A stretch of DNA of 32,000 nucleotides from Erysipelotrichaceae bacterium. GTDB taxonomy: Bacteria; Bacillota_I; Bacilli_A; Erysipelotrichales; Erysipelotrichaceae. The notes beneath the pieces are model-generated. The model did no database searches and was not told the origin of the DNA. It saw only the letters and a program-made list of their open reading frames with translations. Both the position numbers and the translations under genes were made by a program. The stretch covers positions 1,140,001 through 1,172,000 of the forward strand of contig OY781039.1 of assembly GCA_963676105.1 (NCBI GenBank), read 5' to 3'. Below are positions 5,713-32,000 of the stretch, piece by piece (the first letter of the stretch is position 1; every line of letters begins with the position of its first letter).

Positions 5713-7191
5713 CTAAAGTCCTGATGATAATTCTAGTATTCTTTGTTGACTGAATTCGTGTTTAAGTAAATCACCGGTTTTATGACCTTCATGTAAAACC
5801 GCAATACGATCACTCATTCCAATCAACTCTTCCATTTCAGATGAGATCATCAGAATAGACATTCCTTGTTCGACTAATTGATTCATTAACTTATAAATCT
5901 CTTGTTTTGCGCCAACATCAATACCACGTGTTGGTTCATCGAAGATTAATATATCTGCTTTTGAAGCGAGTACTTTTGCCATAACCACTTTTTGTTGATT
6001 ACCACCACTAAGATTTTTAGCTAGTTGCTTCAATGAAGGTGTTTTGATTTGTAATGTATCACTGTAATATTGACTAATTTCATCAATCTTCTTTTTATCC
6101 ATAATCGTGAATTTACTGTAATTTTTAATACCCATTAACGATATGTTCCAATCAAGTGGAAACTCAAGGAATACACCTTCTCTTTTTCGATCCTCTGGAA
6201 TTAATCCAATACCCTCTGTAATTGCTTGTGTTGAGTTCTTAATGTTAACTTTTCTTCCTTTAACATAAAGATCTCCTTCTTGAATTTTAGCTTCACCAAT
6301 AATTAGTTTGGCAAACTCAGTCCGTCCGGCACCAATAAGACCAGCTAAACCGACGATTTCGCCTTTTTTGAGATCTAAGTTAATGTTGTAAACACCATTA
6401 CCTGATATATTATCCGCTTTTAGAACGACATCACCTATTTGAGCATTTCTTTGTGGAAATGATTCTGATAATACGCGTCCAACCATTAAGTTAACAAGTT
6501 CCTTACGATTGGTTTCTGCCATTGATTTCGTCGCAATATATTGTCCGTCTCTCATGATTGAAACGGCATCAGATATTTCAAATACTTCATCCATTCTATG
6601 ACTCACATAGATAATGGTAACGCCTTTTTCTTTTAGGCTTCGAATGATTTGAAAAAGTTTTTCAACTTCATTAATTGAAATAGCAGCACTTGGTTCATCC
6701 ATAATTAATATTTTTACATCTTTGGATATTGCTTTTGCAATTTCAACCATTTGTTGTTGTGCAGTTGATAAGCCACCAACCATACTGTAAGTATTTATAT
6801 TGACATTTAAATCACTAAATATTTGTTTAGTTCTTTGGTGCATTTCTTTTTTATCTTGAATATATTTTCCGCCAACTTGATCGCCTAGAAAAACATTTTC
6901 TGCGACATTCAATGATGGTACTAAATTAAACTCTTGATAAATAACACCAACACCTTTACTTTTTGACAACGATGGAGTTAATTTTTCAAATTCTTCACCG
7001 TCAATAATGACTGTCCCCTCGCTTTGATCAATCGCACCGGATATAATTTTAATCATCGTTGATTTACCCGCACCATTTTCACCCATTATTGAATGAATTT
7101 CACCAGCTTTGAAACTTAAGGATACATCGTCCAAGGCAGTTACCCCTGGATATATCTTTGTTATATGTTTAAGTTCTAAAACTTTTTTCAT
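5713..7191 (-). CDS. Sugar ABC transporter ATP-binding protein (tandem ATPase, RbsA-type)
   Basis: 492 aa. First half has Walker A GENGAGKST, signature LSTAQQQ and Walker B ILIMDEPS. Second half has GLIGAGRTE, LSGGNQQK and ILIFDEPTRGID. Confidence 0.9.
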   Translation of the reverse strand: MKKVLELKHITKIYPGVTALDDVSLSFKAGEIHSIMGENGAGKSTMIKIISGAIDQSEGTVIIDGEEFEKLTPSLSKSKGVGVIYQEFNLVPSLNVAENVFLGDQVGGKYIQDKKEMHQRTKQIFSDLNVNINTYSMVGGLSTAQQQMVEIAKAISKDVKILIMDEPSAAISINEVEKLFQIIRSLKEKGVTIIYVSHRMDEVFEISDAVSIMRDGQYIATKSMAETNRKELVNLMVGRVLSESFPQRNAQIGDVVLKADNISGNGVYNINLDLKKGEIVGLAGLIGAGRTEFAKLIIGEAKIQEGDLYVKGRKVNIKNSTQAITEGIGLIPEDRKREGVFLEFPLDWNISLMGIKNYSKFTIMDKKKIDEISQYYSDTLQIKTPSLKQLAKNLSGGNQQKVVMAKVLASKADILIFDEPTRGIDVGAKQEIYKLMNQLVEQGMSILMISSEMEELIGMSDRIAVLHEGHKTGDLLKHEFSQQRILELSSGL

Positions 7192-19034: not shown

Positions 19035-19807
19035 TTAGATCCAACCGAATTTCTTACAGGCGTTGTAAATACCATGGTTAACATTATCTTCCGTGACATA
19101 ATCTGCCTTCTCTTTTAAGATATCAACCGCATTTCCCATCGCAATACTGGTCCATCGCTTATCAAACATAACAAGGTCATTATAGTCGTCCCCAAAAACT
19201 ACCATATCTTTAATATCACCATTTAAATGTTCAATCATGTTTTCAATACCACGATGTTTTTCATCATACTGGAAAATAAGATATTCCGGTCTAAATCTAA
19301 GATGGCCGAAACTTTGAATGGTGTTAACTTTATATTCATCTTCTTTTGAAACACTTAAATAAACTTTAAAGATTTCTGATAATGATTCATAATCCAAATT
19401 TGGATCAATGATATATTCTGTAGGTTCTTGTCTTTCTCCTACTTGCTCTCTAAATAAATCATTTTTTGAATAAACCTTAATAGAATTCTAACATAACGAG
19501 AACACCAATATCATTTGCTTCTGCTTCTCTTATTAATGCTTTTGCCTTCTATAAATCGAGTGGGATATTCTCAACAAGTTTGCCATCAATGACTAAACCA
19601 CCGACACCACAACAAACCATGTTGTGAAGATTGATTTCATCTAAAATCCAACGTGCCTTTTAATGAGCACGGCCTGTCGCGATTTCAACAAAATGTCCCT
19701 AATCCTCAAGTTCTCTTTAAGCACTTAAAGCTGAAGGAACCACTTTGTTTGTTTTGATATCAGTTAAGGTTCCATCAATATAAAAAAGGAAATATTTTTT
19801 ATTCATA
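19035..19807 (-). pseudogene. Cof-type HAD phosphatase pseudogene
   Basis: Minus-strand translation from ATG 19807 gives MNKKYFLFYIDGTLTD (HAD motif I), then ...SALSA*RELED*GHFVEIATGRAH*KARW...LDL*KAKAL...LEFY*. That is five in-frame TAA/TAG codons, followed by a +1 frame change near 19480-19500 into the frame of the 120-aa track ORF (…VVFGDDYNDLVMF… = HAD motif IV). Confidence 0.8.
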
Positions 19808-22781: not shown

Positions 22782-23726
22782 TTAGAATTTTCTCCAGCAT
22801 TTTAATTCTAAAAATTCAAGTATCCCTTTATTGTCAGTCCCCTCATAATACTCAACGAGTAGTTTTTTAAATTCACTAACACTTTGTTCTGGGACAACCA
22901 GAATGCCTTCACCTTTTGAGATTAAGAAGTGATTTGCAAAAATAATTGCACTTCTTTCGTTCCCATCTTTAAATACTTGCGTTTTCATAATAAACAAACA
23001 CAATTGGATTGCCTCTTTAATGTTAGATAATTCTTCGTTTAAAATGGCGTTAATCGATTCAATAACAATTGTCTCTATTGGAATTGGTGGAATATATGTA
23101 CAACCTCCAATGGTGACGGGTATTGACCTAATTCTTCCGCCATCAACGATTAACCCTTCATTTACTAACTTACCGATATGACACAAGATTTGATAATCAC
23201 TTTCAAAATTTATGAAATCATTATCCAGAATAAATTCCCAAGCGTGTTTTAGATTTAATATTTTCTGTATATCCTTTGGTGTAACTCCATTCACTATACC
23301 ATTTTCAATAATTTCTTCAGTTTGTGGAAAAGAAGTTGCGATACCTTCAAGAACTGCTTGATCATAGATAAGTGATTTAATATTAATTCTTGCGAAGTCC
23401 AAATTAAGAACAACTCTATTATTCAGTGTCTGTTCTTTATAATCGAGCTTTGCTAGATCCTTTTCAATGTGCCGAATTTCACGTCTTAACTCTTTAGCTT
23501 CCCTTGCGTTTCTTAACAATAATTCATACAAATTATCTGAATAAACATCTACATACTTCGATGTTACTTTGCTGCCTACTCTTTTTCGTACATACAAATA
23601 CCTTTGCCCACTAATCTCTTTTACTTCAGGGGTACCATCATACGCCATTAAGCTAAGTCGTGCATTTAAATCAGATTTTAAGTGTAGTAAATTTTGAATT
23701 TCTTGTATTTTATTTACCATATACAC
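22782..23726 (-). CDS. Fic/DOC-family-like protein with a degenerate active-site motif
   Basis: 314 aa. The region QVFKDGNERSAI aligns with the Fic motif HxFx(D/E)GNGRxxR but lacks the His, the second Gly and the last Arg. The likely true start is ATG at 23720 (the track start GTG lies within the AGAGGTG RBS). Confidence 0.6.
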   Translation of the reverse strand: MYMVNKIQEIQNLLHLKSDLNARLSLMAYDGTPEVKEISGQRYLYVRKRVGSKVTSKYVDVYSDNLYELLLRNAREAKELRREIRHIEKDLAKLDYKEQTLNNRVVLNLDFARINIKSLIYDQAVLEGIATSFPQTEEIIENGIVNGVTPKDIQKILNLKHAWEFILDNDFINFESDYQILCHIGKLVNEGLIVDGGRIRSIPVTIGGCTYIPPIPIETIVIESINAILNEELSNIKEAIQLCLFIMKTQVFKDGNERSAIIFANHFLISKGEGILVVPEQSVSEFKKLLVEYYEGTDNKGILEFLELKCWRKF

Positions 23727-23732
23727 CTCTTT

Positions 23733-23772
23733 TAGGGAACATTTATGAATATTTTATACATTTTGTTCCCTA
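23733..23772. promoter_or_regulatory. 9-bp inverted repeat bracketing the Fic-like gene promoter
   Basis: TAGGGAACA-22 nt-TGTTCCCTA. The spacer contains TATAAAAT on the minus strand. Confidence 0.35.
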
Positions 23773-23844
23773 AATGAATATTCGATAATTACAGCATTTA
23801 TTTTATGACACCGAAGTGACACCAATAAGAGCTCTATAAACAAA

Positions 23845-23868
23845 AAAGTGCCTATTTAAGGTACTTTA
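23845..23868 (-). terminator. Junction terminator A
   Basis: The minus strand reads AAAGTACCT-loop-AGGCACTTT (one mismatch) followed by TTTGTTTAT. It lies immediately past tRNA-end mimic A. Confidence 0.5.
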
Positions 23869-23877
23869 GAGATATAA

Positions 23878-24100
23878 GGTGTACGTGACAGGAATCGTAT
23901 TACATTACCATAACTTCCCAAACACTACCATTTCATGCCGTTTCGTCCCAAATCTTTCCGAAGCTTCCCATATTAAAACTAGGGGATGATTACGGGTTTG
24001 AAAATTATGATAGATTAACTCTTACCCAAGAGTAATTTAGTTTTGCTTGTTCTATATAAAGTAACAATCTATCTATATGGTAACAATACCCACTCATGTT
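23878..24100 (-). repeat. Cassette-junction repeat A (decayed tRNA-3'-end mimic + ~200 bp arm)
   Basis: aGGTGtaCGTGACAGGAATCG has 3 changes from the consensus TGGTGCGCGTGACAGGAATCG. It is followed by an arm that aligns with copies B and C through ...CCCACTCATGTT. Confidence 0.8.
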
Positions 24101-24144
24101 ATTAACAAATACTTTGATTTTTTCATTTCAGTACATAAATAGTA

Positions 24145-24663
24145 TCATTGCAATATGTAATTAATAATGATGAGATTCTTATACACTAAAATCAAATAGA
24201 CATGATCACTAGGCATATTATCGACTGATTGATCCGCATTAATCGTAAAATACCTAAAACAATTACACCTTAAGTCGAATGGACGTAGATCTATTTTTGC
24301 TGTCCCATTAATTGTGGTTTCTTCTATAAGATTAAGAATTGGAGCACGACCGTCTATCACTTCTTGCTCTTCAATGATTTCATCATTCTCGAGATCATTA
24401 ATGAATTTATAAAAATCATTTTCTTCATTGATTTTTAGAACCATGAAACTTTCATAAATCTGTCCTTCATAAGACACCACAGTATATTGATCTTCTGTTA
24501 TATAAGGAAGAAGCTCAGCATATCTAAAGTAATCAGTAGGTTGATCTATTTTTGGATCAAGTGGATCATCTAGTATAACTGATACAATTAAAATTAGAAT
24601 TATTGTGAGAAATAGCGCAGTCAAGAACATAAAGATATATTCAAAATATTTAGATATTTTCAT
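24145..24663 (-). CDS. Hypothetical membrane-anchored protein
   Basis: 172 aa. A single N-terminal hydrophobic helix (FMFLTALFLTIILILIVSVIL), then an acidic soluble domain. No recognisable family. Confidence 0.5.
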   Translation of the reverse strand: MKISKYFEYIFMFLTALFLTIILILIVSVILDDPLDPKIDQPTDYFRYAELLPYITEDQYTVVSYEGQIYESFMVLKINEENDFYKFINDLENDEIIEEQEVIDGRAPILNLIEETTINGTAKIDLRPFDLRCNCFRYFTINADQSVDNMPSDHVYLILVYKNLIIINYILQ

Positions 24664-24742
24664 CGCATAGCATTTTCCTAATGTAAATCAACTAATCAGT
24701 AATAGTTGCCTTACATGAAACTAAGCGATCAAAGTACAGATC

Positions 24743-25930
24743 TTATAATTTAAAATTCAATAAAAAGTCTTCTATATTAATATGTTTAATTCCTTTATAT
24801 GAAAAATCCACGGTATCCATTGATAGAACTAATTTAGGATATGAGTCATTGATAGAATTTAAAACACTGAACTCTCTTTCTCTAGTCGTTTCTGAACCTA
24901 GTAAATAAGATACTTGTATATATAACTTCTCATCATTTTTAGTAGCAATAAAATCAATTTCCTGTTGATTTAACTTTCCGATATTTATAGTGTATCCTCG
25001 TCTTTTAAGTTCGATATAGACAATATTTTCTAAGATTAATTCAATGGCTGCTTCATTATTCCCAACAACGGCTTCTCTAAAACCATGGTCAGCAATAAAG
25101 TATTTTTCTTCTGTTTTTAATAATGCTTTCCCATTGATGTCATATCTTGAAGCTTTATATAATATAAAAGCCTTTTCTAGGATATCAATATAATGAAGTA
25201 TTGTATCAACACTAATTTTTATGTTTTGTGATTTTAGATACTTTGAAATAGACAAAGCTGAAAAAGTTTTAGATGTATTCGCACATAAATAAATGATAAG
25301 TTTTTCTAGTGTCGCTGAATTTCTTATGTCATATCTTTGTATAACATCTTGAAGAACGGCTGATCGAAAACTATCTCTTAGTACAGTCATTGACAAGTCA
25401 TAGTTTAAATCAAAAACAGTTATCGATGGAAGTCCACCAAAAGTTACATAATCTATGAATGTTGCTTTTTTATGATAATCTTTAAACTCTTTATAAGAAA
25501 AAGGGTGAACTAAAATCTCTACATATCTTCCAGCTAGATACGTAGACAAATCAGATGACATTAAGTCCGAATTTGATCCCGTGATATAAATATCAAACTT
25601 ATTCATCGCATGGAAAGCATTGACGGCTTTTTCCCAATTTTTTATTCTTCCTACTTCATCAAGAAACAAGTATAATGGTCCACTATTCTTTTTCTCCCAT
25701 TCTAATACCCTGTTTGTTAAATCTTCGTAGTCATTAATGTTAAAGTTCTCGGGAAGTTCAAAGTTCAGCTTAAGCACATTTATTTTACTTGTAGTATTTT
25801 TTAGTAAATCTTCAATATACATATCTAAAAGAACTGATTTACCGGAACGTCTTAATCCAGTTATAACCTTTACAAAAGGTTTATCTTTATAATCTTTTAA
25901 CTTCTGAATATAGTCTAAACGTTCAACCAT
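24743..25930 (-). CDS. AAA-type ATPase of the AAA_14/DUF4143 kind
   Basis: 395 aa. Walker A GLRRSGKS and Walker B LYLFLDEV, with a C-terminal QEIDFIATKNDEKLYIQV segment resembling the nuclease-like fold tail of this family. Confidence 0.75.
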   Translation of the reverse strand: MVERLDYIQKLKDYKDKPFVKVITGLRRSGKSVLLDMYIEDLLKNTTSKINVLKLNFELPENFNINDYEDLTNRVLEWEKKNSGPLYLFLDEVGRIKNWEKAVNAFHAMNKFDIYITGSNSDLMSSDLSTYLAGRYVEILVHPFSYKEFKDYHKKATFIDYVTFGGLPSITVFDLNYDLSMTVLRDSFRSAVLQDVIQRYDIRNSATLEKLIIYLCANTSKTFSALSISKYLKSQNIKISVDTILHYIDILEKAFILYKASRYDINGKALLKTEEKYFIADHGFREAVVGNNEAAIELILENIVYIELKRRGYTINIGKLNQQEIDFIATKNDEKLYIQVSYLLGSETTREREFSVLNSINDSYPKLVLSMDTVDFSYKGIKHINIEDFLLNFKL

Positions 25931-26089
25931 TACAATTACCTCTATTTCGATTATATTCTAAATACTTTAATATTTCAAATATTATTTCGATTATAGTCTA
26001 AATTAATATTTATCAATAAATCAAAGTAATTAATTTATTCCATAATCTTTCCTAAAGATGCATTTTTATGTAATAAAACCAAAACAAAA

Positions 26090-26111
26090 GAACATCTCTT
26101 TCAAGATGTTC
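26090..26111 (-). terminator. Junction terminator B
   Basis: The minus strand reads GAACATCT-TGAAAG-AGATGTTC followed by TTTTGTTTTGGTTTT. Confidence 0.7.
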
Positions 26112-26123
26112 CAATTTGGTACA

Positions 26124-26305
26124 TGATGCGCGTGACAGGAATCGTATTACATTCCCAAATCTTCCCACAGCTTCCCATATTAAAACTAGGGGTAAACTAG
26201 GGTTTTGAAAATTATGATAGATTGATTCTTATTCAAGAGTAATATAGTTTTGTTTGTTTTATTTGAGGCAACAAATCAATGCATACTGTAATAATACTCA
26301 CTCAA
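26124..26305 (-). repeat. Cassette-junction repeat B (tRNA-3'-end mimic with CCA changed to TCA + arm with ~41-bp internal deletion)
   Basis: TGaTGCGCGTGACAGGAATCG plus an arm. Relative to A and C it lacks the segment between two CTTCCCA motifs. Confidence 0.8.
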
Positions 26306-26327
26306 GATTTTACACATACTAAAATTT

Positions 26328-26639
26328 TTAAAATAATTTATCAGTGTCCCTACGATTATATAAAACCCTGATAATGACTACTTTCTTCATTTCTTTATTT
26401 AGATAGTAAAAAATTGAATAATTATCAATGATCATCTGCCTTAGTTCACCAGAACGAGAAGTCTCTTTTCTATACAACTGAAATCTTTCTGGCATCTCGT
26501 TTAACAAATTAATCTTATTTTCAATTCGTTTGAGCTGCTCTATTGCGATAACTGGTGATTGCAGTTCAAAAGCAATATATTCAAAAATACTTCGTAGATC
26601 ACTATCTGCTTGATATGAGACCTCAATATCGAAAGTCAT
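26328..26639 (-). CDS. Type II toxin, RelE/ParE family
   Basis: 103 aa with a sequence typical of the ParE/RelE plasmid-stabilisation family. A 4-nt ATGA overlap with the upstream antitoxin gene. Confidence 0.8.
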   Translation of the reverse strand: MTFDIEVSYQADSDLRSIFEYIAFELQSPVIAIEQLKRIENKINLLNEMPERFQLYRKETSRSGELRQMIIDNYSIFYYLNKEMKKVVIIRVLYNRRDTDKLF

Positions 26640-26953
26640 ACATTATAATCTTTGAAGATATCGGAAAAAACTTGTTTAACAGGTTTTACTCTACCTTCAT
26701 CCATATCTTTTAAACCTTTTGCCAATTCTGTGTCTATTTGTTCAATGGTCATACTACTCATATCTATTAATTTTGGTGTTGGAATTTTTACATCAAAAGG
26801 TAAACCTTTGTTAAGGATTATTTGTTTATAAAACATATTAATAGCATTGGATGCAGGTATACCAAGAATCGAGAGAATATTCTCTGCTTGTTCTTTGACC
26901 TCTGGCTCAATTCTTGCATATAGATTTGCTGTTTTTATTGCCATATCGGACAC
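26636..26953 (-). CDS. Type II antitoxin, RelB/DinJ family
   Basis: 105 aa. The N-terminal ribbon-helix-helix-like ...NLYARIEPEVKEQAENILSILGIPASNAINMFYKQI... is typical of DinJ/RelB. Confidence 0.8.
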   Translation of the reverse strand: MSDMAIKTANLYARIEPEVKEQAENILSILGIPASNAINMFYKQIILNKGLPFDVKIPTPKLIDMSSMTIEQIDTELAKGLKDMDEGRVKPVKQVFSDIFKDYNV

Positions 26954-27030
26954 TCCTTTATTCTTTTATAGATATATTATCACTCTTTGTGCATACAAAA
27001 GCAATACATATATAGTTTACTTCATGAATC

Positions 27031-27044
27031 TGCGTATATACGCA
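27031..27044. promoter_or_regulatory. Perfect 14-bp palindrome upstream of the antitoxin gene (candidate operator)
   Basis: TGCGTATATACGCA lies about 50 nt upstream (minus sense) of an extended -10 (TGaTAATAT) preceding the antitoxin RBS AAAGGAG. Confidence 0.4.
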
Positions 27045-27074
27045 TTTTTGTGCAGTTACTAATAAACAAACAAA

Positions 27075-27098
27075 AGAGGTTCTCAATTGAGAACCTCT
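27075..27098 (-). terminator. Junction terminator C
   Basis: AGAGGTTCTC-AATT-GAGAACCTCT, a perfect 10-bp stem. The minus strand continues TTTTGTTTGTTTATT. Confidence 0.8.
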
Positions 27099-27110
27099 AA
27101 TTTGTATACA

Positions 27111-27334
27111 TGGTGCGCGTGACAGGAATCGCATTACATTCCCAAAACTTCCCAAACTCTACCATTTCATGCTGTTTCGTCCCAAATCTTTCCGAAGCTT
27201 CCCATATTAAAACTAGGGGTGGACTAGGGGTATGAAAATTATGATAGATTAACTCTTACCGAAGAGTAATTTAGTTTTGTTTGTTCTATATAAAGTAACA
27301 AGTCTATGCATACGGTAATAATACCCACTCATGT
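27111..27334 (-). repeat. Cassette-junction repeat C (intact tRNA-3'-end mimic + full arm)
   Basis: The reverse complement of 27111-27131 is CGATTCCTGTCACGCGCACCA. The arm contains 4 TTCCCA-type motifs, 2 ACTAGGGG motifs 11 bp apart, and a plus-strand hairpin with a T-tract. Confidence 0.85.
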
Positions 27335-27436
27335 TTTTCCACCGTAGTACAGGACATTACATTTATAGATATAACAACAATACCAATACATGGTTTTCAT
27401 GAAAATACAGTTTGTGTACATTAATTTTGAAACTGA

Positions 27437-27772
27437 TTAATTATATACCAAAATTAATAAAGCAAGATAGATAAGAATAATCTCAAAAACGATCAATAAA
27501 GAAAAAACTTTGTAATAATTCGTTGTACTAACTTTACTGATACTATCGATTATAACAATACAAATCAAAGACAAAAACACTATTAGATATAAATGCCAAT
27601 TATTTCGCCATACACAATATATTAATATTGCATTTAAAATAGAAAATATTTTAAAATTTTCTCTTCTATGCATATTTAAGCGATATTTAAACGATTGAAA
27701 CAATGGTAAAAACAAAATTATTACAAATATATCTACCCATACATTTAGATTTTCTAAATTATAATTTATCAA
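27437..27772 (-). CDS. Small multi-pass membrane protein (candidate immunity/partner protein)
   Basis: 111 aa with 3-4 hydrophobic segments. Lies 22 nt downstream of the secreted-protein gene. Confidence 0.5.
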   Translation of the reverse strand: MINYNLENLNVWVDIFVIILFLPLFQSFKYRLNMHRRENFKIFSILNAILIYCVWRNNWHLYLIVFLSLICIVIIDSISKVSTTNYYKVFSLLIVFEIILIYLALLILVYN

Positions 27773-27794
27773 TTTCGTAACTGCTCTTATCTAC

Positions 27795-28397
27795 TTACCA
27801 AAATCCAATTGCTGGATTTGGAAAAGCGCCATTCCAATCAATTCCTAAATAAAGACCTTGCCTTCTTACTGAAGATTGTATTACATAATAAACTATTGTA
27901 CCAGCGCCTACTAACCCAACAAGCATACCAAGTGCAGTCCCGACACCTGGGTAAACACTTCCCAAAGCTGTTAATGCCGCAGTTATAGCTGCTGGGCCAA
28001 TTTCTGCTGCAGCAAATAATGTCATCATCACTTCAGAATATGTTAAGTAAACCTTCCAATCCGAAATAAAAACTCTTGTATTTAACATTTTTCCACTACT
28101 ATAAATATTACTCAAAAAAATAATATTGTTTAATCTATTACCAAAATCTGTTGAAAATCCATATGTTTCAATAATATATTCAATGGATTCAGATAAAACT
28201 AGTTTACCTTCATGATCGAAAGTAAAATACTGATAAATTTCTGATAAATTATTTAAAAAAATTTGATCAGTTATACTTATCACGTCAGAGTAACTGCTCA
28301 CAACATATTCTTCCATCTCTACGTTAGTAGAAGCATTAACAGGACTAGCTAAACTAATAAAAAACAATAATACAAATAAACTTTTTAAAACTTTCAT
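27795..28397 (-). CDS. Secreted protein with a Gly/Ala-rich hydrophobic C-terminal region (module 1 cargo)
   Basis: The track ORF starts at TTG 28412, but ATG 28397 follows the AAAGGAAG RBS. Signal peptide MKVLKSLFVLLFFISLASPVNA|ST. The C-terminus ...AAEIGPAAITAALTALGSVYPGVGTALGMLVGLVGAGTIVYYV... forms two small-xxx-small-rich helices. Confidence 0.6.
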   Translation of the reverse strand: MKVLKSLFVLLFFISLASPVNASTNVEMEEYVVSSYSDVISITDQIFLNNLSEIYQYFTFDHEGKLVLSESIEYIIETYGFSTDFGNRLNNIIFLSNIYSSGKMLNTRVFISDWKVYLTYSEVMMTLFAAAEIGPAAITAALTALGSVYPGVGTALGMLVGLVGAGTIVYYVIQSSVRRQGLYLGIDWNGAFPNPAIGFW

Positions 28398-28442
28398 AAA
28401 TCTTCCTTTCAACTTAAAATCTTAAATTAAAAATATTTATAA

Positions 28443-28508
28443 CTAAACTCTTGGAATCTTATAATCAAATAACGATATAAGCCATAATAGTAAATCTAAA
28501 TCACCCAT
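28443..28508 (-). CDS. 21-codon ORF MGDLDLLLWLISLFDYKIPRV (candidate signalling pro-peptide), copy 1
   Basis: Below the ORF-track length cutoff. It has a strong SD AAGGGAGGA 8 nt upstream of the ATG. It is divergent from the XRE/TPR regulator and upstream of the secreted-protein gene. Copy 2 differs by two nucleotides in one codon (CTT vs TTA), both encoding Leu. Confidence 0.5.
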   Translation of the reverse strand: MGDLDLLLWLISLFDYKIPRV

Positions 28509-28545
28509 TTTTTTATTCCTCCCTTAGAATAATTATAATTTAAAT

Positions 28546-28555
28546 AATCATGATT
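28546..28555. promoter_or_regulatory. Palindromic box AATCATGATT in the divergent promoter region
   Basis: A perfect 10-bp palindrome 8 nt upstream (minus sense) of a TATAAT hexamer (28532-28537) that precedes the small ORF. Conserved in copy 2 (31280-31289). Confidence 0.35.
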
Positions 28556-28582
28556 CTTGTCTATTCTTTTTTTTGATTTTAA

Positions 28583-29854
28583 ATGTTAAAGAGTCTATTA
28601 TTAGATATCATGAGCGACAAATATAAAAACAATGGCTTTAACATTACAAAATTAATCATTGATCAAAGAAAACAGCTTAAATTATCTTTAAGAGAACTTT
28701 CTCAACTAACTAAATATAGTTATCAAACATTATCTAAATATGAAACAGGTGGTATTGAATTAAATAAGAACAATCGAGTAGTTCTATTTGAACACCTACA
28801 CATAAATGCAGATGACGTTGATTATTTATCCAATGACTTTAAACAAGATTTAGACTTACTGTTTGAATCGATTGTATATGACGAACAAGCTGAAATAAGT
28901 TCACTTTTCTCCAGAATTAAGAAAGCTGAAGAATATTTAGATTACACTAAATTTAGAGAAGAGTTTATTACGCTAAAAATCATTGTATCAATCATCAATA
29001 ATGAATCTATATCACAGGAAATGTTGAATGAATCACAATTCAATTCTTTTAAGCTATCTCTTCAACAATGGATCTATGATTATATCGCTATTTATTACCT
29101 CAAAAACAATGATCTTATTAGGGCTGTAAAATATATTGATAAAGCGATATCTCTTGGGGTTCATGAATCAAATGTTGGACTTGTCAATTACCATGCAGGA
29201 ATCATCTATTCTGTCTATGGACAACTTTTAAAAGCTAGACACTATTTAGAAACAGCAGAAACTCACTTCATAAAACAAAGAAACAATATAAGACTTATTA
29301 ATCTTCAAATACAACTAACAACGGTTGAATCAAAACTAGGACAAGTCAATAAAGCACGAGCATCTTATCTTAGACTGTTAAAAGACATCGAAAAAATTAA
29401 TGATCACTATTCATTAAATGTTGTGTATCATAATCTATCCTGGTTGGAATATCGCCAAGAAAACTTTCAAGTTTCATTAGACTATCTAGATAAACTTGAG
29501 AAATCTCAAACATTAGACGAAAATGATCTCATCACCAAAATGTTATGTTTAACAGAACTTGAACAATTTGATGAATCTGATTCTATTTACAAAAACAACA
29601 CAATCTTGGATACAATGTATAAATTATATAGTGAGATTATTCACTTAGAAAATATCCATAAGATTGATAAAAACTATGAAGCGAAATGTATGGAACTTTA
29701 TCACATTATTAAAGATAAAAGAGACTTTGAAAATATTGAAATCGTTATCTTAAAACTACTAGATTACTACGAAAAGAAGCGTTTATATAAGAAAGCCTAT
29801 GAACTCACCAAAGAACTTTATAGTTACATAGATTGGGTGTATCAACTCGATTAA
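28583..29854 (+). CDS. XRE-type HTH + TPR-like transcriptional regulator (RNPP/Rgg-like architecture), copy 1
   Basis: 423 aa. N-terminal HTH ...LSLRELSQLTKYSYQTLSKYETG... and a C-terminal ~330 aa with repeated helical TPR-like units (…YYLKNNDLIRAVKYIDKAISLG…GIIYSVYGQLLKARHYLETA…). The alternative start is ATG 28610. Confidence 0.7.
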   Translation: MLKSLLLDIMSDKYKNNGFNITKLIIDQRKQLKLSLRELSQLTKYSYQTLSKYETGGIELNKNNRVVLFEHLHINADDVDYLSNDFKQDLDLLFESIVYDEQAEISSLFSRIKKAEEYLDYTKFREEFITLKIIVSIINNESISQEMLNESQFNSFKLSLQQWIYDYIAIYYLKNNDLIRAVKYIDKAISLGVHESNVGLVNYHAGIIYSVYGQLLKARHYLETAETHFIKQRNNIRLINLQIQLTTVESKLGQVNKARASYLRLLKDIEKINDHYSLNVVYHNLSWLEYRQENFQVSLDYLDKLEKSQTLDENDLITKMLCLTELEQFDESDSIYKNNTILDTMYKLYSEIIHLENIHKIDKNYEAKCMELYHIIKDKRDFENIEIVILKLLDYYEKKRLYKKAYELTKELYSYIDWVYQLD

Positions 29855-29911
29855 TTTATGAACATCTTTTAAATTGATTTTTTCTTCTTTAAATTAAACA
29901 GTAGAAACAAA

Positions 29912-29935
29912 AGAGGTTCTCAATTGAGAACCTCT
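29912..29935 (-). terminator. Junction terminator D (also positioned to terminate the + strand regulator gene)
   Basis: Same AGAGGTTCTC-AATT-GAGAACCTCT hairpin as terminator C. The minus strand continues TTTTGTTTCTACTGTTT. Confidence 0.75.
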
Positions 29936-29947
29936 AATTTGTCTACA

Positions 29948-29967
29948 TGGTGCGCGTGACAGGATTC
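29948..29967 (-). repeat. tRNA-3'-end mimic D (intact core, different arm)
   Basis: TGGTGCGCGTGACAGGA is identical to copy C, and the ~60 bp to its left (including the terminator) is identical to C apart from one base. The sequence to its right is unrelated to the A-C arm. Confidence 0.75.
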
Positions 29968-30158
29968 AACATTTTACCTGTATATGATCAACATAGACTG
30001 CTATAAACGGCTTAATCCTATCTTTTATGCACCTTAAATATACTTGATTGACATAGAATTACATCAGAGTTCTGCTAGGAGGGGAAATTTAGGTGGAATC
30101 GTAATTTTATTCATATGTAATAATGCATTCTCATGTTTATCTCAAACAATCCATTATC

Positions 30159-30437
30159 TTACTTATTAATTGAATCCTTTAACTCATATAACGTAGCTTT
30201 TTTTGTCGGTCTTCTATTAAAAATAGCTAAGTGAATAAGTAAGATTACAAAAAGTATAAACTGATTTAACCAATTCATCGATAACCAAAACCACCCACCA
30301 TTAATAGCCACAACACTTGCGTTTGTATTATCAACATATTTGGCTAGATTATAGAATAGCGAAATTGAGTTAACAAAAGTTATTACACTTAAAATAAGCA
30401 ATATTAAATCAACATCTTTAAAAAATCTCTTTACCAT
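30159..30437 (-). CDS. Small membrane protein (candidate immunity/partner protein, module 2)
   Basis: 92 aa with 2-3 hydrophobic segments. Lies 10 nt downstream of the module-2 secreted-protein gene and is unrelated in sequence to the 111-aa module-1 protein. Confidence 0.5.
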   Translation of the reverse strand: MVKRFFKDVDLILLILSVITFVNSISLFYNLAKYVDNTNASVVAINGGWFWLSMNWLNQFILFVILLIHLAIFNRRPTKKATLYELKDSINK

Positions 30438-30447
30438 ATAATTCCTT

Positions 30448-31131
30448 TCAGTACCTTAAATGTGGATTACACAAACTAGATAATACTCCAAGATACCCCA
30501 CATTGGGCACCCATCTTTCTAAATCCCATACTTTCTCAACTACGAGTTGTTTGTGGCACATATATTGATCATATAAACTACCATTGTCAATTTGAATCCC
30601 AATATAAATCGTCTTCAATTCACTCCATGCTAAATTTGCTGCAAAATCAAGCACTCTAACTGATAGTTTAGGATCCAAACTATATGTCCAATAGTTATTT
30701 CTTAAATGATATATATGCGAATAGAAATATTCATTTACAGTGCTTAAAGAAAATGTACTAAATACGTAAACATTTGAACTCGACACACTTACATTCTGTG
30801 ATACTTCATCTAGTAAATCTTTCAAAGCTTCACTCTGTTCAAATTTATTATCTGACTGATTATAAATATATGATTCTAATCTTGAATTAACATCTTGTAT
30901 CCATTTCTCGTTTTGAATAACAAAATCGCTAAGATCCTCTAATTTTAAGTTCTCTATTAAAACCATATCAGTGATTAATTGATCTCTATATTGAAATGTT
31001 TCATTATTTTCTTCTAAGATTGACTCTTCTTCCTTTGTATATAAATCTGGCATCAAAACTGTGCTCGCATTCACAGGACTAGCTAAACTAATAAAAAACA
31101 ATAATACAAATAAACTTTTTAAAACTTTCAT
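30448..31131 (-). CDS. Secreted protein, module 2 cargo (same signal peptide, unrelated mature domain)
   Basis: ATG 31131 follows the same RBS as copy 1, and the signal peptide is identical through ...SPVNA|ST. The mature part is unrelated to copy 1. The C-terminal ...YMCHKQLVVEKVWDLERWVP... loosely recalls the DUF2599-type CH...WxLE motif (low confidence, from memory). Confidence 0.6.
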   Translation of the reverse strand: MKVLKSLFVLLFFISLASPVNASTVLMPDLYTKEEESILEENNETFQYRDQLITDMVLIENLKLEDLSDFVIQNEKWIQDVNSRLESYIYNQSDNKFEQSEALKDLLDEVSQNVSVSSSNVYVFSTFSLSTVNEYFYSHIYHLRNNYWTYSLDPKLSVRVLDFAANLAWSELKTIYIGIQIDNGSLYDQYMCHKQLVVEKVWDLERWVPNVGYLGVLSSLCNPHLRY

Positions 31132-31176
31132 AAATCTTCCTTTCAACTTAAAATCTTAAATTAAAAATATTTATAA

Positions 31177-31242
31177 CTAAACTCTTGGAATCTTATAATC
31201 AAATAACGATATTAACCATAATAGTAAATCTAAATCACCCAT
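31177..31242 (-). CDS. 21-codon ORF MGDLDLLLWLISLFDYKIPRV, copy 2
   Basis: Same peptide as 28443-28508, with a synonymous Leu codon difference and the same SD. Confidence 0.5.
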   Translation of the reverse strand: MGDLDLLLWLISLFDYKIPRV

Positions 31243-31316
31243 CTTTTTATTCCTCCCTTAGAATAATTATATTTTAAATAATCATGATTCTTGTCTATTC
31301 TTTTTTTTGATTTTAA

Positions 31317-32000
31317 ATGTTAAAGCGTATAATATTAGATAATATGAGCGACACTATATCAAATAATGGCTTTAACATTACAAAATTAATCATTGATCAA
31401 AGAAAACAGCTTAAATTATCTTTAAGAGAACTTTCTCAACTAACTAAATATAGTTATCAAACATTATCTAAATATGAAACAGGTGGTATTGAATTAAATA
31501 AGAACAATCGAGTAGTTCTATTTGAACACCTACACATAAATGCAGATGACGTTGATTATTTATCCAATGACTTTAAACAAGATTTAGACTTACTGTTTGA
31601 ATCGATTGTATATGACGAACAAGCTGAAATAAGTTCACTTTTCTCCAGAATTAAGAAAGCTGAAGAATATTTAGATTACACTAAATTTAGAGAAGAGTTT
31701 ATTACGCTAAAAATCATTGTATCAATCATCAATAATGAATCTATATCACAGGAAATGTTGAATGAATCACAATTCAATTCTTTTAAGCTATCTCTTCAAC
31801 AATGGATCTATGATTATATCGCTATTTATTACCTCAAAAACAATGATCTTATTAGGGCTGTAAAATATATTGATAAAGCGATATCTCTTGGGGTTCATGA
31901 ATCAAATGTTGGACTTGTCAATTACCATGCAGGAATCATCTATTCTGTCTATGGACAACTTTTAAAAGCTAGACACTATTTAGAAACAGCAGAAACTCAC
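31317..32000 (+). CDS. XRE-type HTH + TPR-like regulator, copy 2 (partial, runs off the right edge)
   Basis: Not in the ORF track. ATG 31317 gives MLKRIILDNMSDTISNNGFNITKLIIDQRKQLKLS... From 31365 to 32000 the DNA appears identical to 28631-29266. Confidence 0.7.
   Translation, partial: MLKRIILDNMSDTISNNGFNITKLIIDQRKQLKLSLRELSQLTKYSYQTLSKYETGGIELNKNNRVVLFEHLHINADDVDYLSNDFKQDLDLLFESIVYDEQAEISSLFSRIKKAEEYLDYTKFREEFITLKIIVSIINNESISQEMLNESQFNSFKLSLQQWIYDYIAIYYLKNNDLIRAVKYIDKAISLGVHESNVGLVNYHAGIIYSVYGQLLKARHYLETAETH

Follow-up and report, generated by a model that had tools for sequence, protein, structure and literature searches.

Unrelated secreted proteins joined to one regulatory and export head at the predicted signal-peptide cleavage site, in a tRNA-Leu cassette array of an Erysipelotrichaceae bacterium

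Described precedents and the two modules of the window

Class II bacteriocin loci, such as pneumococcal blp and Lactobacillus pln, combine double-glycine (GG) leaders, a C39 ATP-binding cassette (ABC) exporter, a two-component sensor and peptide induction. Tandem accretion of integrase-less elements at tRNA or attachment (att) sites is represented by the cis-mobilizable elements (CIME type) of streptococci, and the hallmarks of integrons are the intI integrase, attI and attC-flanked cassettes. In polymorphic toxin systems (CdiA, Rhs, MafB, LXG), a constant N-terminal trafficking part is followed by a variable C-terminus and accompanied by a cognate small protein, and diversification proceeds by recombination with displacement, which leaves orphan partners (PMC3482391, Zhang et al. 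2012). The erp genes of Borrelia burgdorferi (OspE/F-related, 'upstream homology box', cp32 prophages) share a conserved promoter/operator and leader, behind which mature parts of independent origins have been recombined (PMC10016077). RRNPP receptors are proteins of 250-500 amino acids (aa) with tetratricopeptide (TPR)-type repeats, adjacent to a propeptide gene of 10-100 aa (PMC10075063); the RRNPP(A) members comprise Rap, NprR, PlcR, Rgg, PrgX and AimR (PMC10075063, PMC9765709). Here we analyse a stretch of 32,000 nt from an Erysipelotrichaceae bacterium (GCA_963676105.1, contig OY781039.1, positions 1,140,001-1,172,000 of the forward strand), hereafter the window. It carries two modules, A and B, whose unrelated secreted proteins, the cargos, are joined to a nearly identical upstream part, the head, at the predicted cleavage site of a Sec signal peptide.

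Each module would consist of an RRNPP-type regulator with a helix-turn-helix (HTH) domain and TPR repeats, a divergently transcribed peptide gene, a fusion of Sec signal peptide and cargo, and one or two membrane proteins, here called partners. The erp genes are the closest precedent for homology that ends with the export signal, since there too a conserved promoter and leader are joined to independent mature parts. However, the erp genes encode lipoproteins, provided with a lipobox and a sorting sequence, lie on prophage plasmids and are devoid of an adjacent peptide/TPR regulator or a membrane partner, whereas the present modules have a signal peptidase I site (VNA/S, the slash marking predicted cleavage), an RRNPP-like regulator, a peptide gene, partners and a chromosomal tRNA-Leu array. 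The resemblance is one of architecture only, and with the lipobox absent the modules do not belong to the erp gene family.

Polymorphic toxins resemble the modules in having a constant N-terminal part and mutually unrelated variable parts; an apparent orphan gene of 61 aa, in locus L008, extends this likeness. On the other hand, the constant part is here a 22-residue Sec signal peptide with regulatory DNA, in place of a large delivery domain, exchange extends to the entire mature protein, and no recognised toxin or immunity domain was found. With the blp and pln loci the modules would share a conserved leader, variable mature products, small membrane genes of the immunity type, strain-specific mosaic loci and induction by a peptide signal. 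Nevertheless, they have a Sec signal peptide in place of a GG leader and a predicted cytoplasmic HTH-TPR receptor, and no ABC exporter gene is present in the array (22782-32000). None of the closest precedents combines a bare Sec signal peptide, an RRNPP-like switch and a tRNA-anchored cassette array.

The junction between head and cargo

The following features define the junctions of the two modules.

28333..29266, no strand assigned: conserved head, copy A (signal peptide, spacer, small open reading frame, divergent promoter region and the first 657 nt, at the 5' end, of the regulator gene)
31067..32000, no strand assigned: conserved head, copy B, running off the window end
28332..28397, minus strand: signal-peptide coding region of module A, MKVLKSLFVLLFFISLASPVNA, 22 codons; ATG at 28397, Ala(-1) codon at 28334-28332
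31066..31131, minus strand: signal-peptide coding region of module B; ATG at 31131, 22 residues identical to those of module A
27795..28331, minus strand: mature cargo A, 178 aa: a small N-terminal alpha/beta domain, four hydrophobic Gly/Ala-rich helices and, at the C-terminus, a beta-hairpin
30448..31065, minus strand: mature cargo B, of 205 aa, ending in a DUF2599 domain

The duplication of 28333-29266 as 31067-32000, pointed out in the preliminary description of this DNA, is real: the two segments are 96-100% identical by both a repeat finder and pairwise alignment. The repeat finder gives 100% for 28627-28926 against 31361-31660 and 97% for 28333-28619 against 31067-31353. In the pairwise alignment, identity is unbroken from 28627 to the window end and drops abruptly to random similarity left of 28333/31067. 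The duplicated block comprises the 5' part of the regulator, a divergent promoter region of 101 nt, an open reading frame (ORF) of 21 codons, a spacer of 45 nt between this ORF and the cargo ATG, a ribosome-binding site (RBS; AGGAAG) 5 nt before that ATG and the signal peptide of 22 codons. Outside the regulator (28333-28609), the copies agree at 267 of 277 positions (96.4%). Since an identical tract of more than 900 nt is combined with an architecture that recurs in independent metagenome contigs, the duplication is neither chance nor artefact; an assembly artefact in particular was discarded, as independent assemblies show the same structure.

Identity between the two copies reaches position 28333, which is the middle base of the codon for Ala(-1), and ends there. 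The junction codons read CCT GTT AAT GCT TCT ACT in copy A and CCT GTG AAT GCG AGC ACA in copy B, and both cargos start with Ser(+1) and Thr(+2), encoded by different codons. Since V-N-A occupies positions -3 to -1, the signal peptidase I site predicted by the -3/-1 rule lies between Ala and Ser (VNA/ST), where the DNA homology stops. A break at the cleavage site had been proposed before and is retained, though not its placement after the AST codons, which is about 7 nt too far.

Beyond the break, the two cargos have little in common. An ancestry from one secreted and one membrane protein, diverging fast while export constraints kept the signal peptide, is very improbable, even though cargos A and B are both acidic, rich in Asn and Ser after the cleavage site and begin with Ser-Thr, and two cargos from other loci (L010c and L023c, below) are true distant homologues. 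Indeed, identity falls from about 100% to random within 3 nt, as a step without gradient, BLASTP of cargo A against cargo B gives no match outside the signal peptide, and the best BLASTP match between partners A and B has E = 4; the absence of visible similarity noted earlier for both the mature and the membrane proteins is thus borne out. In hhalign, the profile of 61 cargo-A relatives reaches a probability of about 1% with cargo B as target; for the cargos of L023 and L001 the values are 1.5% and 0.3%, respectively. Furthermore, cargo A aligns end to end with an independent family, whereas cargo B carries DUF2599 (PF10783, E = 7.8e-11, 42.8 bits against a Pfam cut-off of 25). The proposal that a sensitive comparison might reveal divergent homologues was thereby followed up, and as judged from sequence cargo A and cargo B do not appear to be such.

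With mature cargo A as query, an exhaustive HMMER search retrieved 136 representatives at E <= 1e-3 and 70 at E <= 1e-10, counted at 50% clustering and with the window protein included. These are secreted proteins of 200-240 aa, aligned over almost the entire mature length. The head signal peptide occurs within this family in the window protein only; the other 135 representatives have ordinary but different signal peptides, with at most 8 of 22 residues identical to it. No Pfam domain was found among 61 members, and the AlphaFold (AF2) model built from the family alignment is confident (predicted local distance difference test, pLDDT, 87). Cargo A belongs to a widespread, uncharacterised secreted family whose predicted fold is novel. 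Its members (P0015-P0149), for which there is no Pfam model, share the motif WKxYFT...AAxxGPAA...GxYIGxxWNGxFPN..GxW, and one homologue has a Peptidase_C39_2 gene in its vicinity, in surroundings that resemble a mobile element. For DUF2599, no functional data were found in the literature.

About 12 loci proved informative, collected as contigs with regulator relatives, by a DNA pattern search for the signal peptide and by a look-up of a cargo-B relative. Only six regulator relatives were found among 5.8 billion proteins, and exact look-up of regulator A (with both possible starts) and of the full copy-B regulator, P0001, returned no record. Scanning a genome collection with the regulator alignment yielded one true locus, in an uncultured Erysipelotrichaceae metagenome-assembled genome (a GTDB genome); a second candidate, in Fusibacter, was rejected because its 38% identity is confined to the N-terminal 80 residues. 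The signal-peptide DNA pattern was found at three metagenome loci and at no viral locus. A 50-column alignment of signal peptide and flank gave four candidates and one match (P0011), word-index searches performing poorly for such queries.

The earlier proposal to look for further combinations in other genomes was answered by these loci: the same 22-residue signal peptide precedes at least nine cargo types, not two, with at least seven beyond those of the window, in related Erysipelotrichaceae contigs. The junctions, with lengths of the full precursors, are as follows.

Window A: VNA/STNVE, 200 aa
Window B, L025, L026: VNA/STVLM, 227 aa, DUF2599
L001, L002, L004: VSA/KESES, 248 aa
L008, L013, L014: VNA/LSDIN, 162 aa
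L009: VSA/GTDGV, partial
L010: ISA/STDLG, more than 247 aa
L022: VNA/SSGNI, 187 aa
L023: VNA/QMNSV, 306 aa from the MKILK start (ORF 312 aa)
P0011: VYA/FDDTS, 67 aa
L001, second module: diverged head, VSA/LSNET, 241 aa, Peptidase_C39_2-like (23.0 bits against a cut-off of 24)

When the window was aligned with these loci by BLASTN, eight independent head-side breakpoints were obtained, all in window positions 28326-28342, i.e. within 17 nt. All-against-all BLASTP of nine mature cargos detected only two related pairs, L010c-L023c (E = 1e-11) and the C-terminus of L001c with P0011 (E = 6e-4). Mature sizes range from 45 to 290 residues and fall between 140 and 290 in seven of the eight full-length cargos. 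Collectively, these data show unrelated protein families joined to a conserved head at the predicted cleavage site of its signal peptide.

Probable exchange of cargos in a tRNA-Leu cassette array

On the side opposite to the head, each variable segment ends at a boundary repeat. The repeats that enclose module A are the following.

27068..27342, no strand assigned: repeat bounding module A on the side of its partner, with a terminator hairpin at 27075-27098, the last ~21 nt of tRNA-Leu at 27111-27131 (minus strand) and a ~210-nt arm
29905..29967, no strand assigned: boundary between modules A and B, with a terminator hairpin at 29912-29935 and a tRNA-Leu 3' copy at 29948-29967

With the variable segment of module A beginning at 27343, the segment of cargo and partner (about 0.9-1.0 kb) is bracketed by the head (at least 1.6 kb) and a tRNA-Leu-derived repeat of about 275 nt. 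Both brackets are conserved in other loci. On the left, 26325-27342, comprising a ParE/RelB cassette and the boundary repeat, is 87% identical to L001, L008, L013 and L014; on the right, 28331-29967, comprising head, regulator and terminator, is about 90% identical to the same four. The 0.9-1.0 kb between these flanks are unrelated in the window, in L001 and in L008/L013/L014, so that three cargos occupy a syntenic site. Between L001 and L008 the ParE/RelB cassette, the arm and a 61-aa membrane gene are 98.9% identical; their cargos are unrelated (248 aa in L001, 162 aa followed by a 64-aa gene in L008).

Divergence differs between head and cargo as well. Window module B is 93.5% identical to L025 over cargo and partner and 87.0% over the head; its head, on the other hand, matches that of module A at 96.4%, with regulator DNA 100% identical from 28627 to the window end. 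The codons at the junction are divided in the same manner: module B shares GTG AAT GCG AGC ACA with L025, of the cargo-B lineage, and the preceding GCT AGT CCT with window A. This split indicates that a recent homogenisation tract stops 7-9 nt short of the cleavage site, between the codons for Pro(-5) and Val(-3). Differences between the regulator copies cluster at 28583-28626 against 31317-31360 (the first ~15 codons) and in the last ~45 codons; since the 1.1 kb between the clusters are identical in DNA or protein, the clusters mark the ends of the homogenised tract. From the regulator across the intergenic region and the peptide to the spacer, locus L003 equals L001; from signal-peptide codon 3 onward it follows the L008/L025 pattern, and it is a recombinant inside the head. 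Head and cargo have discordant, mosaic histories.

We regard as probable that the modules are peptide-switched expression and export units, in which tails of cargo and partner are reassorted behind the conserved head. One crossover by homologous recombination would fall in the head and the second in the boundary repeat or an adjacent cassette; such events would both homogenise the heads and reassort the tails, and only junctions with an intact signal peptide and reading frame would survive. Such selection would explain why all breaks map to the cleavage site.

The main rival is concerted evolution only. Whole cassettes would integrate at tRNA-Leu and gene conversion would equalise their heads, the break being passive and the head having no role in recruiting cargos. 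The heads of A and B, 96-100% identical to each other but each 86-91% identical to those of other strains, fit this proposal, as do the att-like tRNA-Leu-derived repeats that bound the modules, the converted tract that stops within the signal peptide while cargo B keeps its lineage's V-N-A-S-T codons, and the head and regulator that differ together with the cargo between L001 and L008. However, concerted evolution leaves unexplained how one 22-residue signal peptide came to be attached at one and the same point to unrelated families, among them a family with signal peptides of its own in the other 135 representatives, and fusion events at the junction are still needed. It is further opposed by the crossover in L003, between the peptide-signal peptide spacer and signal-peptide codon 3, and by window A, L001 and L008, whose cargos differ although the cassette and arm beside them are the same. 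We therefore consider concerted evolution alone unlikely, though a serious competitor. As an evolutionary mechanism, the recombination of a conserved head with exchange of cargo tails, suggested in the preliminary description, is supported by the slot replacement, the discordant divergence and L003.

The boundary repeats belong to an array of cassettes occupying the last 9 kb of the window (22782-32000; cf. L025 6833-15020 and L011 1533-1660), with TGGGAA-type repeats in the arm. Four repeats lie in the window (23872-24108, 26082-26315, 27068-27342 and 29905-29967), each with a terminator hairpin and CGATTCCTGTCACGCGCACCA, and three of the four with the ~210-nt arm. Since in L025 and L011 an intact tRNA-Leu(UAG) beside core genes has CGATTCCTGTCACGCGCACCA as its 3' end, the window array should extend from a tRNA-Leu just past the window. 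Within the window, ARAGORN found no tRNA and Rfam gave no match at gathering or E-value thresholds. GTGCG in the repeats was considered as the 5' end of a group II intron and rejected, given the blank Rfam result and the tRNA-Leu match that explains the sequence.

Besides the two modules, the cassettes of the window array encode the following.

22782-23726, minus strand: a Fic-domain protein
24743-25930, minus strand: an AAA_14/DUF4143 ATPase (PADLOC candidate PDC-S01, E = 3e-140), in one cassette with a 172-aa protein
26328-26953, minus strand: a ParE/RelB toxin-antitoxin pair

Cassette order differs in L025, and the cassettes are 86-94% identical to those of the window against 74% for a core PHP gene; this better conservation suggests horizontal exchange. 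As in CIME-type elements, direct repeats (the tRNA-Leu 3' end with its arm) separate short cassettes whose order varies between genomes. No integrase is encoded in the window. The only trace is a tyrosine-integrase fragment (Arm-DNA-bind_4, Phage_integrase) in L014, beside the ParE/RelB cassette; the related arrays (L014 101-922, L013 1391-2977) hold an AbiEii/DUF6088 cassette as well. Cargo exchange here, moreover, takes place inside a cassette, at the signal-peptide junction. In function the array resembles the cassette arrays of integrons; unlike these, it lacks an integrase in the window, and its boundaries are tRNA-Leu 3' direct repeats with an arm, not attC.

A bolder proposal, which we put forward only tentatively, is that the tRNA-Leu array is integron-like but integrase-less and carries a portable adaptor of regulator, pheromone, promoter and signal peptide, onto which any secreted-protein gene can be grafted at the signal-peptidase site. 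If so, a grafted gene would gain population-density control, Sec export and a protective partner at once, and the array would be a Gram-positive counterpart to integron-like gene shuffling. Recombination would then serve to domesticate and shuffle effectors of the size of class III bacteriocins, unlike all described delivery types of polymorphic toxins.

The predicted switch, the partners and the role of the cargos

The elements of the putative switch are listed below.

28610..29854, plus strand: regulator A, N-terminal HTH_3 and TPR repeats; 414 aa, or 423 aa if translation starts at 28583 instead
31344..32000, plus strand: regulator B, 5' part, the remainder lying outside the window
28443..28508, minus strand: small ORF, copy A, MGDLDLLLWLISLFDYKIPRV, 21 codons plus stop, with RBS AGGGAGGAA; candidate pheromone propeptide
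31177..31242, minus strand: small ORF, copy B, peptide identical to copy A
28535..28563, minus strand: promoter-like site TAGACA-17-AATTAT upstream of the small ORF, conserved across loci; a consensus match only

P0001, of 423 aa, differs from copy A at about 7 N-terminal residues and at 5 of the last 45. In Pfam, regulator A matches HTH_3 with 25.5 bits against a cut-off of 23, whereas TPR_12, TPR_2 and TPR_10 match at E = 1e-5 to 2e-4, all below their cut-offs; in NCBIfam only a generic HTH region was matched. The AF2 model, built from six sequences, is an all-helical repeat, and its top Foldseek matches are pLS20 Rap, phage Rap, RapF, RapI, RapH and NprR (E = 5e-7 to 2e-4). The regulator is thus an HTH and TPR protein, with weak similarity to Rap and NprR in its predicted fold.

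The small ORF and the regulator lie on opposite strands, and 101 nt separate their starts. Its copies in the window differ by CTT against TTA, both Leu, and it is kept in all related loci with synonymous or conservative changes only: at the amino-acid level the WLISLFDYK core never varies, codons 10 and 12 changing only synonymously, and the remaining substitutions are I/L, D/N, I/V and P/L. In the second module of L001, the regulator, the peptide MFELYYLIIDLFDMVLPKF and the signal peptide have all diverged together, a pattern expected of a cognate regulator-peptide pair. No terminator was found between the peptide gene, the cargo and the partner.

These properties bring the module close to RRNPP systems: the regulator, with 414-423 aa, an N-terminal HTH and TPR repeats, is NprR-like and within the described receptor size range, the adjacent 21-codon gene with its strong RBS has the expected propeptide size, and peptide and receptor co-diverge in the paralogous module. 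In RRNPP systems the propeptide has an export signal of Sec or PptAB/SHP type (SHP, short hydrophobic peptide), and the mature peptide alters the activity of the receptor by binding to it. Differences are the lack of sequence homology to any known subfamily, a peptide with neither an evident Sec signal nor the basic N-terminus of SHP peptides, and a target operon consisting of a swappable secreted cargo. The peptide would be exported and re-imported and would switch the regulator, which in turn would activate the operon of peptide, cargo and partner. We infer, on this basis, a quorum-sensing role for the regulator and the small peptide. The module of L025 (9726-10682) looks like a decaying copy that has lost its switch: a frameshift divides its cargo-B gene into parts of 144 and 94 aa, and its regulator is deleted after ~17 codons.

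Each cargo is followed by small membrane proteins of the multi-pass hydrophobic type, which in the window are as follows.

27437..27772, minus strand: partner A, 111 aa, three or four hydrophobic segments
30159..30437, minus strand: partner B, 92 aa, two or three hydrophobic segments

Partner A matches no family in Pfam or NCBIfam. The preliminary description had proposed to examine whether each secreted/membrane pair co-varies. The 92-aa partner accompanies cargo B in three contigs (window, L025, L026), but the 61-aa protein does not co-vary with cargo and is identical after two different ones (L001 1322-1507 and L008 1319-1504, with flanks at 98.9%). In L008, the 61-aa gene behaves, to all appearance, like an orphan immunity gene left after displacement of a cargo. 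No equivalent small membrane gene follows the cargo-A homologue of L027. The partners are most likely protective and immunity-like.

The cargos would be secreted effectors, most likely antagonistic, and the modules share their island with conflict genes (ParE/RelB, Fic, PDC-S01 and AbiEii cassettes). A toxin function of the cargos, with immunity conferred by the partners, is what we infer from this arrangement. Alternatively, the cargos could be variable surface or host-interaction proteins, diversified by host immunity or phage pressure, with the partners serving as anchors or chaperones. One conserved promoter and leader would then drive unrelated exported proteins, in the manner of Borrelia erp or of the variable lipoproteins of Mycoplasma. 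Erysipelotrichaceae are relatives of Mollicutes, which counts for this alternative, as does the failure of any cargo to match a known toxin domain. We nevertheless judge it quite unlikely, since the lipobox Cys is absent, the site VNA/S being of signal peptidase I type, since tiny multi-pass partners that differ between most cargos, one of them an orphan, are typical of immunity genes, and since the modules lie among toxin-antitoxin and defence cassettes.

Several observations weigh against a peptide-switched unit with reassorted tails. Regarding recombination, the head and regulator of L001 and L008 are only 89.4% identical beside a flank at 98.9%, so that both apparently moved with the cargo and whole-unit exchange also occurs. 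The break between A and B, furthermore, is partly passive, because a conversion tract cannot cross the point where homology already ends. The sharing of the 61-aa partner by two cargos means that the pairing of cargo and partner is not strict, and the sample is small, about 12 contigs, many of them from a few related metagenomes. As to the switch, the regulator model is weak (pLDDT 62, template modelling score ~0.4) and the Foldseek scores of generic TPR proteins are almost as high as those of Rap and NprR; phmmer with the regulator against all Protein Data Bank (PDB) chains gave no RRNPP match at E <= 10; and the small peptide, although provided with a hydrophobic core, shows neither of the export features mentioned above. 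As to the cargos, searches of Pfam, NCBIfam, PADLOC, PHROGs and PDB gave no known toxin domain, the best leads being DUF2599 and the sub-threshold Peptidase_C39_2 match, and Foldseek found no neighbour of the cargo-A model in PDB or BFVD.

Should the reassortment of cargos behind a peptide-switched head prove correct, a polymorphic effector system would need no more of a constant handle than a bare Sec signal peptide with its upstream switch. Polymorphic-toxin and bacteriocin logic would thereby extend to ordinary Sec-exported proteins and be tied to a branch of peptide-sensing HTH-TPR regulators not seen before. In an uncultured gut-associated lineage, about nine secreted families that are as yet uncharacterised would, with their partners, become candidates for antagonism.

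Two further observations concern the surroundings of the arrays. In L025, the first cassette after tRNA-Leu contains twelve perfect tandem copies of the 10-nt AAACCCCGAG (7060-7180), just upstream of an SLFN_AlbA_2/HATPase_c_4 gene. In the window, a 120-aa ORF at 19035-19397 (minus strand) matches HAD Hydrolase_3 over positions 187-254 of 255 only, the C-terminal third, and may be a truncated gene near the border between core and array.

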